Of a stretch of 32,056 nucleotides of DNA, positions 4,530-32,056 are shown in pieces; positions within the stretch are counted from its first letter, which is position 1; each line of letters opens with the position of its first letter. The stretch is from IMG/VR virus record IMGVR_UViG_3300030060_003579, positions 1 to 32,056 of that record, one strand, 5' to 3'. Origin of the DNA: a virus (taxonomy: Duplodnaviria; Caudoviricetes). The notes under the pieces are model-generated. The model did no database searches, had not been told where the DNA came from, and worked only from the letters and a program-made list of their open reading frames with translations. Position numbers and translations under genes: made by a program.

Positions 4530-4558
4530 ATCTTATAGGCATTAACGCCTATAGTAAA
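4530..4558 (-). promoter_or_regulatory. Leftward early promoter with operator
   Basis: Minus strand TTTACT (4558-4553), 17 bp, TAAGAT (4535-4530); the spacer holds TAGGCG-TTAA-TGCCTA (4551-4536). Confidence 0.75.
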
Positions 4559-4574
4559 GCCAAAAAAAAACATA

Positions 4575-5207
4575 TTATGGTCTAATCCAATCAACTATCA
4601 TTATCCATTTTATTTGACCTATATTTGGCTCAGCTATGTTTGTTCCAGGCAACATGACAAGTTCAAATTTATTGTTTGCAGTAGTTGTAAGATAACCTAA
4701 ATGCCTACAGTTAGTTATACATTCAGCCACAACCAGTTTACCTATATTTTTAATTATTTCTTCATCATCTGTAATCATCTTTGGCTTACAGAAATATGCT
4801 CTTGTTTGATTCATTATCTTTGTTGAGTTCATGCCAAAAGCTACATATTCCTGCCCATTATCTTTAATCATTGTAGAGCCTGGTGTATCAGGACTAAGGG
4901 CTGTTATCTCCCAGTTATTCTCAGGGTTTACTAAACCTAAATAACGCACTTCCCTTAAATCATCTAATGGCTGAGCAAGCTGCATGAATGTAGCAAAATC
5001 AGGAAATCTTTTTGATAGTTTACCTACAGTTCTCATTGAGAGAACATGATCTGCCCTAGTCGATATATCATTGACAAAGCCAGTAAGTGTACTGGGTGAA
5101 ACATCAGCTTCAGATGCAAATTCTGATAAACTCATACCATGCGTTTTCGCACAGTTAAGTAAAGCCTGTTTAATCTGATTCCTATTCATAAATGACGAAT
5201 AATACAT
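4575..5207 (-). CDS. CI-like repressor (N-terminal XRE HTH, divergent C-terminal domain)
   Basis: GMSLSEFASEADVSPSTLTGFVN HTH; divergent from a cro-like gene; alternative start ATG 5189. Confidence 0.75.
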   Translation of the reverse strand: MYYSSFMNRNQIKQALLNCAKTHGMSLSEFASEADVSPSTLTGFVNDISTRADHVLSMRTVGKLSKRFPDFATFMQLAQPLDDLREVRYLGLVNPENNWEITALSPDTPGSTMIKDNGQEYVAFGMNSTKIMNQTRAYFCKPKMITDDEEIIKNIGKLVVAECITNCRHLGYLTTTANNKFELVMLPGTNIAEPNIGQIKWIMIVDWIRP

Positions 5208-5299: not shown

Positions 5300-5328
5300 T
5301 TTACATTATAGGCGTTTGTGCATAGAGT
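5300..5328 (+). promoter_or_regulatory. Rightward early promoter with degenerate operator
   Basis: TTTACA (5300-5305), 17 bp, TAGAGT (5323-5328); TAGGCG-TTTG-TGCATA (5309-5324) sits in the same register as at 241-269. Confidence 0.7.
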
Positions 5329-6951: not shown

Positions 6952-7747
6952 GACATTTATCAATAAATCTACATTGCAGGAGAACTATTCTACCTTGCCC
7001 AATAAGCTGATCAATGATGAGAAGTTGTCAGGTGATGGTCTAGCAGTGCTTGTTTATCTGTTATCAAAGCCGTCAGACTGGAAGGTCAATGCACAGAATA
7101 TTGCCAATAGATTTGGCTATGGCATCAATAAAGTCTATCAGATTATCAAGCAGCTTATTCAATATGGTTACGTCAAGAAAGATGTCATCAGAGATCAGGG
7201 TAAGTACACGCAAATCGTTTACCACGTTTATGATCAACCATTTCACTGTTTACCACAAATGGATTTACCACAAATGGATATCAGTGAAACATACAAAAGA
7301 AAGAAAGTACTAAATAAAGAAATAACAAATGCCGTAGAACCATCAATATTCGATATTGCTGCTTCTAGGCTCATTAATCATGATGTACCTGATAAGAGGG
7401 CTAGAGGTATAGTTGCAATGCTCCTCTCTTCCTTTAAGAACATTACTGCTGTCAAAGAAAAGGAAAAGCTTTTAAAGGATGCCGTCTTTAAATTGCCTGA
7501 AACAATTACACAAGCTGACAGAGTTGTGCCTTACCTTACTAGAATGATACAGGCTACTGATGTTGTTAAAGAGCCTGAACAGAACTTCAGTGTTCAATAT
7601 AAATTGAGTGTTGATGATGTACTGACAGCAGGGCCTGCCTATCAAAGTAAGATAAACAGAGACAGTGACAAGGCTATGCAGGTTATGACAATGATAAAAA
7701 CAAATCAGATACACAGAGATCAGATAAGGTGGTTTAATGGGGCTTGA
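6944..7747 (+). CDS. Replication initiator (N-terminal winged HTH)
   Basis: NYSTLPNKLINDEKLSGDGLAVLVYLLSKPSDWKV..IIKQLIQYGYV; internal iterons; start ATG 6944. Confidence 0.8.
   Translation: MTETFINKSTLQENYSTLPNKLINDEKLSGDGLAVLVYLLSKPSDWKVNAQNIANRFGYGINKVYQIIKQLIQYGYVKKDVIRDQGKYTQIVYHVYDQPFHCLPQMDLPQMDISETYKRKKVLNKEITNAVEPSIFDIAASRLINHDVPDKRARGIVAMLLSSFKNITAVKEKEKLLKDAVFKLPETITQADRVVPYLTRMIQATDVVKEPEQNFSVQYKLSVDDVLTAGPAYQSKINRDSDKAMQVMTMIKTNQIHRDQIRWFNGA
7218..7330. repeat. Putative origin of replication inside the initiator gene
   Basis: TTTACCACAAATGGA x2 (7249-7278), partial TTTACCAC (7218-7225), flanking IR TTTCACTG (7241-7248)/CAGTGAAA (7282-7289), then an A-rich tract. Confidence 0.75.
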
Positions 7748-8102
7748 TGAGTTATACGACAGGTTGGAAGAAATGGTGCTTGTATGTAACAGCTTCCCAT
7801 CACCAATCAGAAAACAGAAACTGTGCTTTTGGCCTGAATATGCTAATGATGCCAACCTTGCCTATGGATATAATGTGACTACAGTTAGTATTAAGCCTAC
7901 TAATGACATGATAGATCGTTGTGATGAAGCACTGTTATGGGTGTTGAATATGCCTTTGGAAGACAGGAAAATTGTTTGGTTAAGAGGTTCTAAACTGTCC
8001 TGGAGGAAGATTTCTTCATTTTTTTCATGTAATAAAGATACTGCGAAAGCCAAGCACACTCTAGCTTTGGTGAGATTGCAACATAAAATACGTCAAAAGT
8101 GA
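7737..8102 (+). CDS. Putative late-gene regulator (DUF6362-like, C-terminal sigma-4-like HTH)
   Basis: DRLEE..FWPEY..MIDRCDEALLWV..DRKIVWLRG..WRKIS; last early gene before the late leader. Confidence 0.65.
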   Translation: MGLDELYDRLEEMVLVCNSFPSPIRKQKLCFWPEYANDANLAYGYNVTTVSIKPTNDMIDRCDEALLWVLNMPLEDRKIVWLRGSKLSWRKISSFFSCNKDTAKAKHTLALVRLQHKIRQK

Positions 8103-8113
8103 AAGGTTTTTTT

Positions 8114-8156
8114 ATTAGACAAAAAGCCAAGAATTAGACACATAATTAATTAAAAT
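8114..8156 (+). promoter_or_regulatory. Probable late promoter region
   Basis: ATTAGACA direct repeat (8114-8121, 8133-8140); -10-like CATAAT (8141) and TAAAAT (8151) without canonical -35 spacing. Confidence 0.45.
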
Positions 8157-8211
8157 AGAGTAAATTTATTTTTTCCTATAAATATCTCCTAAAAGAGGTT
8201 AATTTTATTTT

Positions 8212-8258
8212 GGCAGCCTAGTAGATTATTCGTCATTCTCCGCTAGGCTGTTTTTTTT
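8212..8258 (+). terminator. Intrinsic terminator of the late leader with a large anti-RBS loop (candidate sRNA 3' end)
   Basis: GGCAGCCTAG / CTAGGCTGTT stem, 21-nt loop TAGATTATTCGTCATTCTCCG, T8 tract at 8251-8258. Confidence 0.8.
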
Positions 8259-8267
8259 GAGGACACT

Positions 8268-8354
8268 ATGAACACTAAAAATAAAGAACAGAAGATTAAG
8301 AAATCTTTATCATTTTGGGAGTGGCTAGATATAAAGCTTAAAGAATGGTTGTAA
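8268..8354 (+). CDS. Trp-rich micropeptide, 28 aa (absent from ORF track)
   Basis: GAGGA RBS; MNTKNKEQKIKKSLSFWEWLDIKLKEWL; stop is 1 nt before the terS ATG. Confidence 0.55.
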   Translation: MNTKNKEQKIKKSLSFWEWLDIKLKEWL

Positions 8355-8355
8355 G

Positions 8356-9006
8356 ATGCGAGGACAGTTAAAGCCTGGTGTTAACTGGTTAGAAATAGAG
8401 AATAGAATAAGGTCAGGTGAGAAAGCTTTTGCAATCTCAAAAGACTATGAGATAAGCAGACAGGCAATAGAGAAGAGAGCCAAGAGGTTTGGTTGGTTAC
8501 GATCTCAGAAAGCTGTAGAAGTAGCTAAGATCAATGCAAAGGTTGCAAATGGTGAGATAAAGAGTGCAACCAAACGCAGTGCAACCTTAATGACAAAACG
8601 TAATCATGTACAGAGATTTGATAAGGATACACCTGAGACAAAGGATGCTATCCTCGAACTATTAAAGGAAGGCAACCCAAGAACAATAGCGGCTCAGTGT
8701 TCAGGAGTTTCTTTGGATAGCTTGAACAGGTGGGTAGATAGAGACGATCAGTTTGCTTTGTTGGTACGTCAAGCAGAGAGCGAGGCAGTGCGTTTTAGGC
8801 TGCAAAATATCAAAAAAGCAGGTAATCGTGGTGACTGGAAAGCTGATAGTTGGTACTTAGAGAGAACACAAAGACAGATATTTGGTAATGAAAACAATAA
8901 GTTAGGTGCTATGAACCTGCAGATAAACATAATGAGGGATACAAGTACAGAACCTGTGACCATTGACTCTGTAACCATTGATAATGCTGAGGTTTCAGAA
9001 AGTTAG
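8356..9006 (+). CDS. terS: Terminase small subunit
   Basis: N-terminal HTH (NWLEIENRIRSGE..ISRQAIEKRAKRFGW), second HTH, GDWKADSWYLERT motif; upstream of terL. Confidence 0.8.
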   Translation: MRGQLKPGVNWLEIENRIRSGEKAFAISKDYEISRQAIEKRAKRFGWLRSQKAVEVAKINAKVANGEIKSATKRSATLMTKRNHVQRFDKDTPETKDAILELLKEGNPRTIAAQCSGVSLDSLNRWVDRDDQFALLVRQAESEAVRFRLQNIKKAGNRGDWKADSWYLERTQRQIFGNENNKLGAMNLQINIMRDTSTEPVTIDSVTIDNAEVSES

Positions 9007-9365
9007 TCACCACATAGTCACCACATACCCCCATGCCATGCCCCACAGGGTCGGTGCTTTGGCGTAAGCGAAAACGTATATATCACACTCACGCACACAC
9101 AAAATTTTAACCACCATAGGTTGCACTATTAAACAGGTTGCACAGAAGAAGGGTTGCAATGACACAATTTGATCCATCAATGGTTGCACAGATGTTAATG
9201 CAACCTGTAGGCAAGGAGTCTTTAGACCAAAAGGTTGCAGATGAAAATTACTTTCAACCAATAGAAATACCATTACCTGGAATGCTTTCACCATTGGATA
9301 TGCAGGGTGGTTTCTTTATGAGTCCTGAAACAGCAAAAAAGGTTGCGTATGGTGGAGCGGTTGCA
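8541..9365. repeat. Cluster of GGTTGCA heptamers around the terS end (candidate packaging signals)
   Basis: Exact copies at 8541, 9119, 9136, 9152, 9182, 9233, 9359 (+) and 8565, 8580, 9199 (-). Confidence 0.6.
8956..9027 (-). repeat. Inverted copy of the attP arm-repeat array
   Basis: TAGTCACCACA x2 (9004-9025), GTAACCATTGA (8971-8981) and GTGACCATTGA (8956-8966) match 178-218 in reverse complement. Confidence 0.65.
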
Positions 9366-10511
9366 GGTGCATCCTTTGTGCCAGGAGCAGGATTTGTTGA
9401 TGCCGCAGGTGGTGCGGTAGATGTAACAGGACAGCCGTTACTTAGTTTTGGTGAGAATATTGGACAGGGTAATTATCTTGATGCCGCCTTACAGGGATTA
9501 GGTGTTGCAGGTGATATGGCTACTTTTGCAGCACCATTTACGGCAGGTACATCATTGGCATTAGCGGCAATGTTAAAAGCACCTGGTGCAGCTAGAAAAG
9601 TTACAAAGGCTACAGAAGTTGCCAGTGATGTTTCTAAGTTTTCTGGCATGGATAAAGCAAGCAGGTTAGAAAGAGCTAGAAAATTAGGCTTTGATGTAGA
9701 TAATCCAATTTATCATGGAACAAACACAGATGAATTGACTGAGTTTGATGAAAGCAAGATTGGTTTAAGAGATGAAGGGTTTTTCGGTAGAGGTTTCTAT
9801 TTTGCTGATAATGCAGGAGAGGCAGGATACTATGGCAAGAATGTTGGTGAATATTTTGTAAGAGGTAATTTATTAGATTTAACTGATACATCAGGAGAAC
9901 CATCATATTTAGGAAGTCCACTTATATTTATTAATTGGGCAGAAAAACTAGACAAGATTGATATGCTTGATGATACACACAAGCAAGCACTTAAAGGTGC
10001 TAAAAAAGTTGTAAAATATTTTGATGAAAATGTAACAATTTTACCTGCACAAAACGCTGATGGCACTACAGGTTACACAGCTAAAATAATTGACCCTACT
10101 CGTGATCCTTTTGATGGTGATCCACAGGAAATTTTTATGCGAAGTAGGTATGATGATGATTTTCCAAAAACACAGGAAGAGGCAAAAGAAAGGTTATTTT
10201 ATCAATTTGCAGATGATGTAAGAACTAACCAATACAAAGACACAGATTTCTTTGAAGGTTTTAATGATGATTTCTTATTTTCATTGTCAGATTACATTAG
10301 AGAAGGTGGAGATGTTTCAGGTCTTAATGCTTCTAAGCTAACTGAAAAAGCTAAAGCGGCAGGATTTGATGGTATAAGAGCAGGTGATGAAACTGTAATC
10401 TTTGATGCTAAAAATATTCGCTCTTCTGATGCAGCGTTTGATCCAAAAAAGACAGATAGTCCACAACTATTATCAAGTGTAATGCAAGATAGTATGACAG
10501 CAGTAGCCTAA
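9159..10511 (+). CDS. ADP-ribosyltransferase (ART-PolyVal-like, H-Y-E clade) with Gly/Ala-rich pre-toxin-like N-terminus
   Basis: YHGT (9711), GRGFYF (GFYF at 9792), GFDGI..DETVIFDAKNIRS..AAFDP; start ATG 9159. Confidence 0.8.
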   Translation: MTQFDPSMVAQMLMQPVGKESLDQKVADENYFQPIEIPLPGMLSPLDMQGGFFMSPETAKKVAYGGAVAGASFVPGAGFVDAAGGAVDVTGQPLLSFGENIGQGNYLDAALQGLGVAGDMATFAAPFTAGTSLALAAMLKAPGAARKVTKATEVASDVSKFSGMDKASRLERARKLGFDVDNPIYHGTNTDELTEFDESKIGLRDEGFFGRGFYFADNAGEAGYYGKNVGEYFVRGNLLDLTDTSGEPSYLGSPLIFINWAEKLDKIDMLDDTHKQALKGAKKVVKYFDENVTILPAQNADGTTGYTAKIIDPTRDPFDGDPQEIFMRSRYDDDFPKTQEEAKERLFYQFADDVRTNQYKDTDFFEGFNDDFLFSLSDYIREGGDVSGLNASKLTEKAKAAGFDGIRAGDETVIFDAKNIRSSDAAFDPKKTDSPQLLSSVMQDSMTAVA

Positions 10512-30799: not shown

Positions 30800-30982
30800 G
30801 TGTTATGGGTTTTGTATGTGTTTCTTGTAGGTGCAGAGGTAGAAGAACTTGTCTTTTTCAATAGCCTTGATACTTGCCTCGAATACGCAATCAAAATCAG
30901 AGAGCAGGACTTGCACCAAAGAGTTGCAGGAGACAAGCTTTATATCAAAACTTTTTGCATACCTCAAAACAAAGATAATTAA
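30800..30982 (+). CDS. Small protein with hydrophobic N-terminus and two Cys
   Basis: MLWVLYVFLVG..FNSLDTC..TFCIP; GTG after AAGGA. Confidence 0.65.
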   Translation: MLWVLYVFLVGAEVEELVFFNSLDTCLEYAIKIREQDLHQRVAGDKLYIKTFCIPQNKDN

Positions 30983-30993
30983 ATAATTTTTAA

Positions 30994-31044
30994 AGTTATG
31001 AGGAGTATATTTGATTGGTGTCACTTTTTGCTCCTCACCAAATA
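30994..31044 (+). ncRNA. Candidate structured RNA, hairpin B (9-bp stem, 21-nt loop, 3' ACCA)
   Basis: AGTTA-TGAGGAGTA-[TATTTGATTGGTGTCACTTTT]-TGCTCCTCA-CCAAATA; flanks identical to hairpin A. Confidence 0.55.
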
Positions 31045-31055
31045 AAGGATAAAAT

Positions 31056-31511
31056 ATGATTAGTTTACTAGGCTCATTGTTGGGCTTTGGAACAAGTTTT
31101 TTGCCTTCAATATTAGATTTTTTTAAACAGGCACAGGCTCACAAACAAAAACTTGAAATGATGAAAATGCAGAGTGAGTTACTTGAAAAGAAATCTGCAC
31201 TGCGTATTCAGGAACTGGACAAGCAGGCTGAAATAAAAGAAGTGGAAGGATTGTATAAACATGATGCAAGTTTGGATGGTGGTAAGTTCGTTAACGCTCT
31301 ACGAAGTTCGGTTAGGCCTGTCATCACTTATATTTTTATGGGCTTATTTATTGCCGTAGAAGTTTCAATAATAGTTAAGTTTATGGAAACTGGCGGTGAT
31401 TGGACAGGAGCAGTAAACCTTTTATGGAGTGATGAAGTTGCAGGACTTTGGTCAGCTATATTAGCTTTTTGGTTTGGCAACAGAGCGATCTCAAAATTTC
31501 AAAGAAAATAA
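31056..31511 (+). CDS. Holin-like protein (3TM, GTA-holin-like)
   Basis: LRSSVRPVITY..ILAFWFGNR; lysis region. Confidence 0.7.
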   Translation: MISLLGSLLGFGTSFLPSILDFFKQAQAHKQKLEMMKMQSELLEKKSALRIQELDKQAEIKEVEGLYKHDASLDGGKFVNALRSSVRPVITYIFMGLFIAVEVSIIVKFMETGGDWTGAVNLLWSDEVAGLWSAILAFWFGNRAISKFQRK

Positions 31512-31512
31512 C

Positions 31513-31812
31513 ATGGCAAGAAAAAGAATTAATCTTACTTCAAAGCACAAATCACCTTCAGGGGGTTTGAATGAGGCAGGAAGGCGTTTTGCAAGATCGC
31601 AAGGGTCTAACCTCAAAAGACCTGTAAAGAGCGGTGACAACCCTCGCAGAGCAAGTTTTTTAGCGAGAATGGGCGGTTCTCGTGGCCCTGATTACAAAGA
31701 TGGCAAACCAACTAGGAAGTTACTGGCACTTAGAAAATGGGGGGCTAGTTCATCTGCTGATGCAAGAGCAAAGGCAAAGAAAATTTCAGAGAGAAACAAA
31801 AAGAAAGGATAA
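31513..31812 (+). CDS. Small highly basic protein
   Basis: KSPSGGLNEAGR..NLKRPVKSGDNPRRASFLARM..LALRKW; start ATG 31513. Confidence 0.8.
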   Translation: MARKRINLTSKHKSPSGGLNEAGRRFARSQGSNLKRPVKSGDNPRRASFLARMGGSRGPDYKDGKPTRKLLALRKWGASSSADARAKAKKISERNKKKG

Positions 31813-31816
31813 AATT

Positions 31817-31912
31817 ATGCCAATGGTTAAAGGTAAGAAATATCCATACACAAAAAAAGGTATGGCAGCAGCATCTAAAGCAAAGAAAAAAACTAAAAAG
31901 GTTAAAAAGTAA
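31817..31912 (+). CDS. Very basic micropeptide, 31 aa
   Basis: MPMVKGKKYPYTKKGMAAASKAKKKTKKVKK; AAGGA RBS. Confidence 0.75.
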   Translation: MPMVKGKKYPYTKKGMAAASKAKKKTKKVKK

Positions 31913-32056
31913 TGGCTAAAAGACCTGGATTATATGCAAACATTCATGCAAAAAGAAAAAGAATAAAAGCAGGTTCTAATGAGAAAATGCGTAAAGCAGG
32001 AACAAAAGGCAGACCCACCGCAGCAGCTTTTAAACAGGCAGCAAAGACTGCAAAGA
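31912..32056 (+). CDS. Small basic protein, truncated by the window end
   Basis: MAKRPGLYANIHAKRKRIKAGSNEKMRKAGTKGRPTAAAFKQAAKTAK..; TAATG coupling. Confidence 0.75.
   Translation, partial: MAKRPGLYANIHAKRKRIKAGSNEKMRKAGTKGRPTAAAFKQAAKTAK

Follow-up and report, generated by a model that had tools for sequence, protein, structure and literature searches.

The locus described here raises the question of whether the leader of a phage late operon gives rise to a short RNA that acts in trans on the phage's own integrase operon and, if so, at which stage. The window, that is, the whole 32,056-nt stretch of marine phage DNA that was analysed, carries in its late leader a hairpin whose loop is complementary to ribosome binding sites (RBS) in the integrase operon. 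The leader lies 7.4–7.9 kb away from these sites, and the complementarity extends over 10–13 nt and covers both the Shine-Dalgarno (SD) sequence and the spacer that follows it.

Genome organisation, attachment site and likely host

The integrase gene is located at 810–1985, an assignment made through both PHROG and Pfam. A leftward early block houses an excisionase-like gene and a likely repressor gene, and a rightward early block has as its last gene one for a protein of the DUF6362 family (7737–8102). From 8356 onward there follow genes identified by PHROG and Pfam profiles as terS, terL, portal and capsid genes, of which the gene for the terminase small subunit, terS (8356–9006, + strand; PHROG 4102, E = 6.9e-13), is the first large gene of the late operon. 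The 24-nt att core (19–42, + strand) corresponds to the 3' end of tRNA-Pro(GGG). It exactly matches seven genome stretches in GTDB, four of which are tRNA-Pro(GGG) 3' ends; three of these four are in SAR116-labelled records and one is in a bin labelled Rhodobacterales, so the host of the phage is, judged by these sequence matches, likely to be SAR116. On contig 11 (L184/L185) of SAR116 genome G007 the att core occurs twice at a distance of 1.6 kb, bordered by sequence of the phage att arms; the ORF between the copies does not resemble the genes of the phage, as in a small island or a prophage remnant at tRNA-Pro.

Several other features of the late region were noted in passing. Between terS and terL lies a variable gene (9138–10511) with an ART-PolyVal ADP-ribosyltransferase-like domain (E = 2.9e-09), whose product is 29–84% identical among relatives, compared with 70–97% for TerL. 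Between the leader hairpin and terS there is a 28-codon ORF with its own RBS (8268–8354), which has counterparts in L013, L148 and L153, and none in L001–L008. The end of the late region (30800–32056 in the window, and likewise in G001, L234 and L254) contains several very short Lys/Arg-rich ORFs just before att, an arrangement common to all lineages.

The leader hairpin and its complementarity to the integrase operon

The hairpin (8211–8258, + strand) resembles an intrinsic terminator, with a stem formed by 8211–8222 and 8242–8253, whose core is CAGCCTAG/CTAGGCTG, and a U tract (U8) at 8251–8258. The loop (8223–8241, + strand) comprises 19 nt, or 21 nt when the closing U-G is left unpaired, and bears the anti-RBS seed TTCGTCATTCTCC (8229–8241). 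The seed is the exact reverse complement of 475–487 over 13 nt, and matches 291–302 over 12 nt and 800–809 over 10 nt. An earlier, sequence-only reading of this DNA had described the loop as antisense to these three sites, and every coordinate proved right, as did the coverage of SD and spacer. The decanucleotide GGAGAATG shared by the three sites occurs on the + strand at 291, 475 and 800, once on the - strand at 8234, and nowhere else in the 32 kb, when 0.030 and 0.006 copies of this 10-mer would be expected under a third-order Markov model.

Each of the three targets (all on the + strand) spans the SD sequence GGAG and the spacer of an operon gene, the respective ORFs starting at 302, 488 and 810. 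The predicted RNA was compared with 174 mechanically called start regions of the window in a duplex scan that takes accessibility into account. The RBS of operon gene 2 (475–487; gene 488–808, 106 aa) ranked first of the 174 at -19.4 kcal/mol, that of gene 1 (291–302; gene 302–475, 57 aa) second at -18.6 kcal/mol, and that of the integrase gene (800–809) third at -15.1 kcal/mol, while the next start region scored -13.0 and the mean was -5.9 kcal/mol. A further 13-nt match to the loop, not among the sites of the sequence-only reading and located at 5191–5203 in the 5' end of the repressor gene, is missing from the repressor genes of relatives and was therefore taken as chance.

The short RNA predicted from the leader is about 105 nt long (8152–8258, + strand), with a 5' end placed, to within a few nucleotides, from the layout of the promoter discussed below. 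Its predicted fold has a z-score of -3.6, and one of 200 shuffled sequences folded equally well. The longer span marked out in the sequence-only reading, 8114–8258, gives a z-score of only -1.9. Two sets of metatranscriptome contigs gave no match to the stretch, and a single possible RNA run covered terS only, results that speak neither for nor against such an RNA. The same reading had pointed to a second CU-rich box, TCTCCTAAA (8185–8193, + strand). This box is present and does complement 471–479, but it is predicted to be paired within a small hairpin and is not conserved among 19 aligned relatives, and it is probably not functional. A search of the window with the covariance models of Rfam 15 gave no match at the gathering threshold; within 8000–8400 the best score, with the C4 family included in the search, was far below threshold (E = 0.48).

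The integrase operon has its own consensus sigma-70 promoter (TTGACA-17-TATAAT; 241–269, + strand), which is overlapped by a palindrome at 250–265. Copies of the pattern TAKGCR-N4-YGCMTA, which was derived from these same sites, are found at 250–265, 4536–4551 and 5309–5324, at three early promoters, the latter two copies flanking the repressor and early genes. The palindrome is, on sequence grounds, likely to be the repressor operator, and the integrase operon would be an early operon under repressor control. The same palindrome was also seen before gene 1 in the related genomes G201 and G198.

Conservation in close relatives

A search with the DUF6362 protein yielded 14 viral loci, every one of which has the hairpin and its loop. 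They are also present in 18 of 24 metagenome loci, several of which duplicate viral loci; of the remainder, five end before the hairpin and one is a weak, unrelated match. Among 19 distinct sequences, 18 of the 19 loop positions are invariant. In the same 19 relatives the 12-pair stem is paired in 96.9% of cells, and two-sided changes are seen at four of the 12 pairs. These changes amount to 12 cells, a number reached in none of 500 shuffles, to which no probability is attached because the sequences are related. The leader hairpin is thus a real, conserved and covarying RNA element.

On the target side, the motif GGAGAATGAC directly precedes the ATG in 36 of 37 operon genes in the 14 loci (four of them near-identical), and the gene walk from which this count was obtained overlooked two further motif-bearing sites. 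The genes that carry it belong to 10 of 11 unrelated small-protein families and to three integrase types. The integrase operon is a variable gene array, and the motif is where its cassettes are exchanged. Arrays of this kind, in which exchanged small genes are linked through the repeated RBS and in some cases located after int, can be seen at 291–1985 in the window and in L008, L015–L026 and L157; one such cassette (L026:9159–9806) may encode a protein that resembles DNA methyltransferases.

Such exchange might suggest that no RNA pairing is involved at all, the motif being an inherited cassette junction, a strong RBS or a DNA-binding site, and its complement in the loop being incidental. That the motif serves as a cassette junction or strong RBS may well explain why it is repeated. 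It leaves unexplained, though, why a nearly invariant loop should be held in a covarying stem, and why its orientation with respect to the motif should always be antisense. The idea that the motif is simply a generic host RBS was ruled out, since the motif followed by ATG was found in none of four likely host genomes, all of them incomplete.

Pattern searches added further loci of the same kind. A 16-nt loop pattern returned 41 stretches, made up of five known loci, 12 further loci (mostly repeat contigs) with the hairpin in its proper context, and 24 unrelated chance matches. A scan for the RBS pattern returned 17 stretches, and none of the 16 new ones had an operon with the repeated motif. 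No prophage copy of the hairpin was found in GTDB (no stretches) or, allowing one mismatch, in 192 genomes of the host order, and a last scan of viral sequences yielded no new contigs.

Loop and target change together in other lineages

Starting from a DUF6362 protein 54% identical to that of the window, 29 additional loci were collected; a terS alignment gave 80, many of which overlapped the earlier sets. Three further leader types were recognised among them, located in the same place, preceded by the same TAGACA promoter, and mutually alignable. In type 2 the loop TTCCTAACCA(G) pairs with (C)TGGTTAGGAG; TTTTCCTAACC is kept in 24 of 24 loci, and gene 1 starts with TGGTTAGGAG in all three contigs that reach the integrase operon. 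In G198 the loop is TTCCTACTCCA and gene 1 has TGGAGTAGGAA-ATG, while in G203 the loop is TTTTCCAATTCCGATTGCA and gene 1 has TGCAAATTGGAATTGGAGAA. The sequence-only reading had named joint divergence of loop and RBS in related genomes as a way of checking its proposal; in four lineages, including that of the window, each loop was indeed found to match its own gene 1. The matrix of RNAs against targets over the four lineages is diagonal, with cognate energies of -15.1 to -19.7 and cross-lineage energies of -4.8 to -11.7 kcal/mol. Among the start regions of its own genome, the start of gene 1 ranks first of 66 in G201, first of 157 in G198 and first of 168 in G203. The ranking left out an antisense ORF overlapping the hairpin itself, and that for G198 used a looser accessibility cut-off than was applied to the other lineages. 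When loops were shuffled with the anti-SD core retained, the observed Watson-Crick run was reached in 7, 215, 236 and 891 of 100000 shuffles in the four cases.

Certain features of these data bear on how they are to be read. Contigs that carry both loop and target number 3, 1 and 1 in the three other lineages. The hairpin of the window shows no visible alignment to the hairpins of the other three, and so strict compensatory evidence lies among those three. Judged by the pure Watson-Crick run, G198, G200 and G203 each contain a longer match than the cognate one, and in L239 there is a tie, so that the first rank of the cognate match requires G-U pairs and accessibility to be taken into account. 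The DUF6362 proteins of the four lineages are 44–63% identical; the lineage of the window forms a single branch with good support, and resolution among the others is poor. In G203 three cassette genes share a motif, GGAGTAGA, which the G203 loop does not match, and repetition of an RBS can therefore arise from cassette exchange alone. This untargeted repeat speaks for an absence of RNA pairing, but three other loops that each match their own gene 1 would then go unexplained, as would the constancy of loop and orientation already described, and we consider it very improbable that no pairing takes place.

The proposal that the RNA pairs with all three genes of the operon applies to the window's lineage, in which every gene has a target site. 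What the lineages share as target is the first gene, and outside the window's lineage no operon gene but this one carries a site. In G201 and G198 the later genes of the operon, int included, overlap stop-to-start, and a block at gene 1 would therefore also act on int, through translational coupling or polarity. In G201 the RBS of the replication-initiator gene comes second (-16.5 kcal/mol); this site overlaps the end of the upstream gene and has a mismatch in L229, L233 and L240. Complements of the type 2 loop were also seen before the replication-initiator gene and before another gene of the early right region (L234:9165 and L239:7158); these imperfectly conserved stretches are, by their sequence, possible second targets.

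The element is not required by all relatives. Within the group, L278, L279 and G204 have leaders of about 30 nt with no hairpin, and cognate pairing was not found in G204 (rank 23 of 130) or in the more distant G001 (rank 94 of 252). In seven further loci of G001-type phages that have int within reach, and whose DUF6362 proteins are about 30% identical, there was no match between the leader and an evident RBS; in G001, int lies directly after att.

The DUF6362 protein and the putative late promoter cassette

The leader is placed between the DUF6362 gene and terS. A late cassette of the lambdoid type is backed by a whole-length match between the fold of the DUF6362 protein and phage 21 Q (Q21) and by a conserved promoter layout. 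The DUF6362 (PF19889) protein (7737–8102, + strand; Pfam E = 2.1e-20) was modelled from 126 sequences with pLDDT 88, and consists in the model of an N-terminal helix, a long loop and a sigma-4-like helix-turn-helix (HTH). The structure of Q21 (6p18_Q) aligns with it over 106 residues within 1–121 (Z 9.3, rmsd 4.3, about 12% identity; Z 7.5 in a wide structure search). Sigma region 4 domains tie with Q21 in score (Z 9.4 as against 9.3), but align over 67–69 residues in the C-terminal half, and Q21 is the sole high-scoring match that aligns with most of the model. Foldseek with the same model gave no match in the PDB at E below 0.001, and the DUF6362 sequence gave no Q match in the PDB at E up to 1, the assignment to Q being one made by fold. 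On the strength of the model the DUF6362 protein is predicted to be a Q21-like antiterminator; a shared fold does not in itself show function, and the protein may act instead as a sigma-4-type activator. No paper naming DUF6362 was found in the open-access literature. DUF6362 genes also occur, nearly always singly, in 42 of 192 SAR116-order genomes. Most of 30 such loci (L199–L228) have after the gene a different, conserved promoter-like motif, TTGACA/GCACA-AAATAGGAT-N4-TCCTATTAT, and in none of the 30 was a comparable terminator loop seen; these genomic copies are possibly those of a domesticated prophage or of a GTA-like regulator.

The putative pR'-like promoter (8116–8156, + strand) comprises a -35-like TAGACA (8116–8121) and a -10-like CATAAT (8141–8146) separated by a 19-nt spacer, with a direct repeat of TAGACA at 8135–8140 (+ strand). 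A second -10-like hexamer, TAAAAT (8151–8156, + strand), is by its sequence pattern a candidate sigma-dependent pause element. A consensus promoter scan did not list this promoter. Of the 31 rows listed, 30 have TAnnnT at an offset of 36 from TAGACA, the exception being a stray match, and in types 2–4 this pattern lies 11 nt after the -10 candidate; it is better conserved than the upstream -10. If the upstream hexamer is the -10, then in types 2–4 the predicted transcript would begin with the opening bases of the long hairpin, and by analogy the RNA of the window would run from about 8152 to 8258. Termination at 8258 is suggested by the covarying stem and the U8 tract in the window's lineage, while in G198 and G203 the hairpin lacks a U tract and the ATG of terS comes directly after it. 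In several relatives no more than about 10 nt separate the U tract from the start of terS, which leaves no room for another promoter, and the late genes must therefore be reached by read-through.

Proposed mode of action

Taking these observations together, we think it likely that the late-leader RNA represses the integrase operon in trans at some stage. The best explanation, in which we have somewhat more than even confidence, is that it does so in the lysogen and early in infection. According to this proposal a late promoter of the lambda pR' type would give a short transcript ending at 8258, whose loop would pair in trans with the RBS of the integrase operon and block translation for as long as the DUF6362 protein is absent. 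What the sequences themselves show is the complementarity, its conservation, its change in step with lineage, the covarying stem and the order of genes; the promoter, its start site, termination at 8258, antitermination by the DUF6362 protein and the repression are deduced from them. In the lysogen the RNA would act as a second lock, behind the repressor, against leaky production of Int and of the cassette proteins; after infection it would limit expression of the integrase operon to an early pulse. Since Q systems make their short RNA when Q is absent, repression is most likely to operate in lysogens and, upon infection, once the first minutes have passed. The sequence-only reading is supported in its main proposal, but it had envisaged a late-phase switch; with a Q-type cassette the short RNA is expected where Q is lacking and need not be late. 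The 19-nt spacing between -35 and -10 in the window counts against our preferred explanation.

The main rival is one of late timing: the DUF6362 protein would switch the promoter on, or the leader would become plentiful through read-through, and during lytic growth the integrase operon would be shut down by the hairpin, whether this is present as a separate RNA or at the 5' end of the late mRNA. It would work much as the retroregulation of int by sib does in lambda. The lack of a U tract in G198 and G203 fits this picture, as does the tie between sigma-4-type folds and Q21 for the DUF6362 protein, and the stronger conservation of the downstream TAnnnT is what would be expected of an activator-dependent promoter. 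Yet if the downstream hexamer were the -10, transcription would miss the 5' arm of the long hairpin, although this arm pairs with the 3' arm in three lineages that differ in sequence; the U tracts present in two lineages and the whole-length match to Q21 also count against late timing. We therefore regard late timing as rather unlikely, and prefer repression in the lysogen and early infection.

A minor alternative reverses the direction of control, with the mRNA of the integrase operon binding the loop and refolding the leader, so that read-through is allowed or the start of terS is freed, and early expression licenses the late genes. The seed does adjoin the 3' arm of the stem, and in other lineages the 3' arm holds a purine-rich stretch before the terS ATG. 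Against this, the complement falls on the SD region in all four lineages, a position that simple triggering would not call for; a gene for a dedicated Q-like protein lies alongside; and relatives that lack the hairpin keep their late operon. Control in this direction is, in our estimation, quite unlikely, and nothing was found in favour of the earlier suggestion that pairing with int mRNA modulates termination.

Relation to known systems

The closest parallel is StxS, which according to the accessible parts of the reports is a processed, Hfq-bound RNA of 74 nt that acts on stx1 and on the host gene rpoS, and is made as a short RNA in the lysogen, where Q is absent (PMC7547250, PMC8065619). StxS and the lambdoid PR'-tR' transcript resemble the RNA predicted here in their origin at a late promoter that follows a Q-type gene, in ending at an intrinsic terminator, for which there is here a terminator-like hairpin, and in base pairing in trans, which is here predicted. 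In contrast to StxS, the predicted targets here are starts of the phage's own integrase operon, and the seed is a perfect match of 10–13 nt in the terminator loop that changes together with its target between lineages. The cassette as a whole resembles those of Q21, AlpA and GafZ. As far as the consulted portions of these sources go, Q cassettes comprise a Q gene, a promoter, a -10-like pause element, a terminator and the late genes (10.1101/651190), and GafZ is an alphaproteobacterial antiterminator with a sigma-like HTH (PMC11150451). The order of sigma-4-like regulator gene, promoter, -10-like element at the start site, terminator and late genes is common to all, with promoter and terminator predicted in the present case (10.1101/651190, PMC11150451). 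The present cassette differs in that the TAGACA repeat overlaps the -35 and does not lie wholly in the spacer, in the low identity to Q21 (about 12%), in that the binding element is a putative one, and in the lack of a leader terminator in some relatives. In the partial text available, the antisense RNAs sar of P22, OOP of lambda and aQ each act on a single gene, respectively ant, cII and Q (PMC12197685); they resemble the RNA proposed here as phage RNAs that block or destabilise an mRNA of the lysis–lysogeny decision (PMC12197685).

The specificity of the C4 antisense RNA comes from short complementary boxes, through loop–target pairing, and the CI RNA of P4 likewise pairs through such boxes to repress a regulatory operon of its phage. 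In P1 and P7, as the consulted text has it, C4 lies within the operon that it controls, c4-icd-ant (PMC8198154). C4 thus resembles the present RNA, whose action is predicted, in repressing a regulatory operon of the phage (PMC8198154); here, unlike C4, the RNA is encoded 7.4–7.9 kb from its targets, at the late promoter, int is among the predicted targets, and there is no match to an Rfam family. Within the portion consulted, the review PMC12197685 describes no RNA from a late leader that acts on an integrase operon; a search of the open-access literature, at the level of titles and the opening lines of abstracts, gave no report of this RNA or of any late-leader RNA acting on int. Control of an integrase operon by a phage late-leader RNA thus has no precedent that we could find in print in that literature.

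A more distant lead is offered by the cluster K mycobacteriophages, which have 11–19 copies of an extended RBS (SAS), with one reversed copy in four of them (PMC3203893, in the part available), and for which the role of SAS is still described as unexplained in the sections seen of later papers (PMC11373665, PMC12699233). In both cases many unrelated non-structural genes are preceded by a conserved extended RBS, of which a single further copy has the opposite orientation. The sequences are unrelated, and SAS sites are spread over half of the genome, whereas here the sites are confined to one operon. The reversed SAS was seen in the apical loop of a long predicted intergenic hairpin in Adephagia (L350:545–625; reversed SAS 58683–58694; z -3.9) and in Anaya (L351:543–623; reversed SAS 59871–59882; z -0.7), with stems that differ in sequence; in Pixie no reversed SAS was found at one mismatch. 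The hairpin placement thus holds for two of three genomes, both of subcluster K1, and we treat the hairpin as a candidate anti-SAS RNA and only as a lead.

Biological implications

It is tempting to draw these strands into a joint reading, which we put forward tentatively and regard as possible, with the odds against it. A master off switch in the form of an anti-RBS RNA with one hairpin and an exchangeable seed might be widespread among phages, and any gene that gains the matching RBS would join its regulon. Pairs of seed and RBS would diverge in the manner of immunity types, so that a prophage silences the integrase operons only of incoming phages of its own type. In these SAR116 phages the switch would come about as a by-product of antitermination by a Q21-like DUF6362 cassette, and SAS in cluster K would be explained in the same way.

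If repression by the leader RNA is borne out, an RNA layer would be added to the control of integrase, and a late antitermination cassette would be tied to integration; StxS, the sole characterised late-leader RNA that was found in the sources as consulted, acts instead on a toxin gene and a host gene. The four natural seed/target pairs constitute a ready specificity matrix, and DUF6362 gains a testable function as a Q21-like antiterminator. A group of temperate phages would be tied to SAR116 through its tRNA-Pro site, and the joint reading would offer a direct test of the purpose of SAS in mycobacteriophages.
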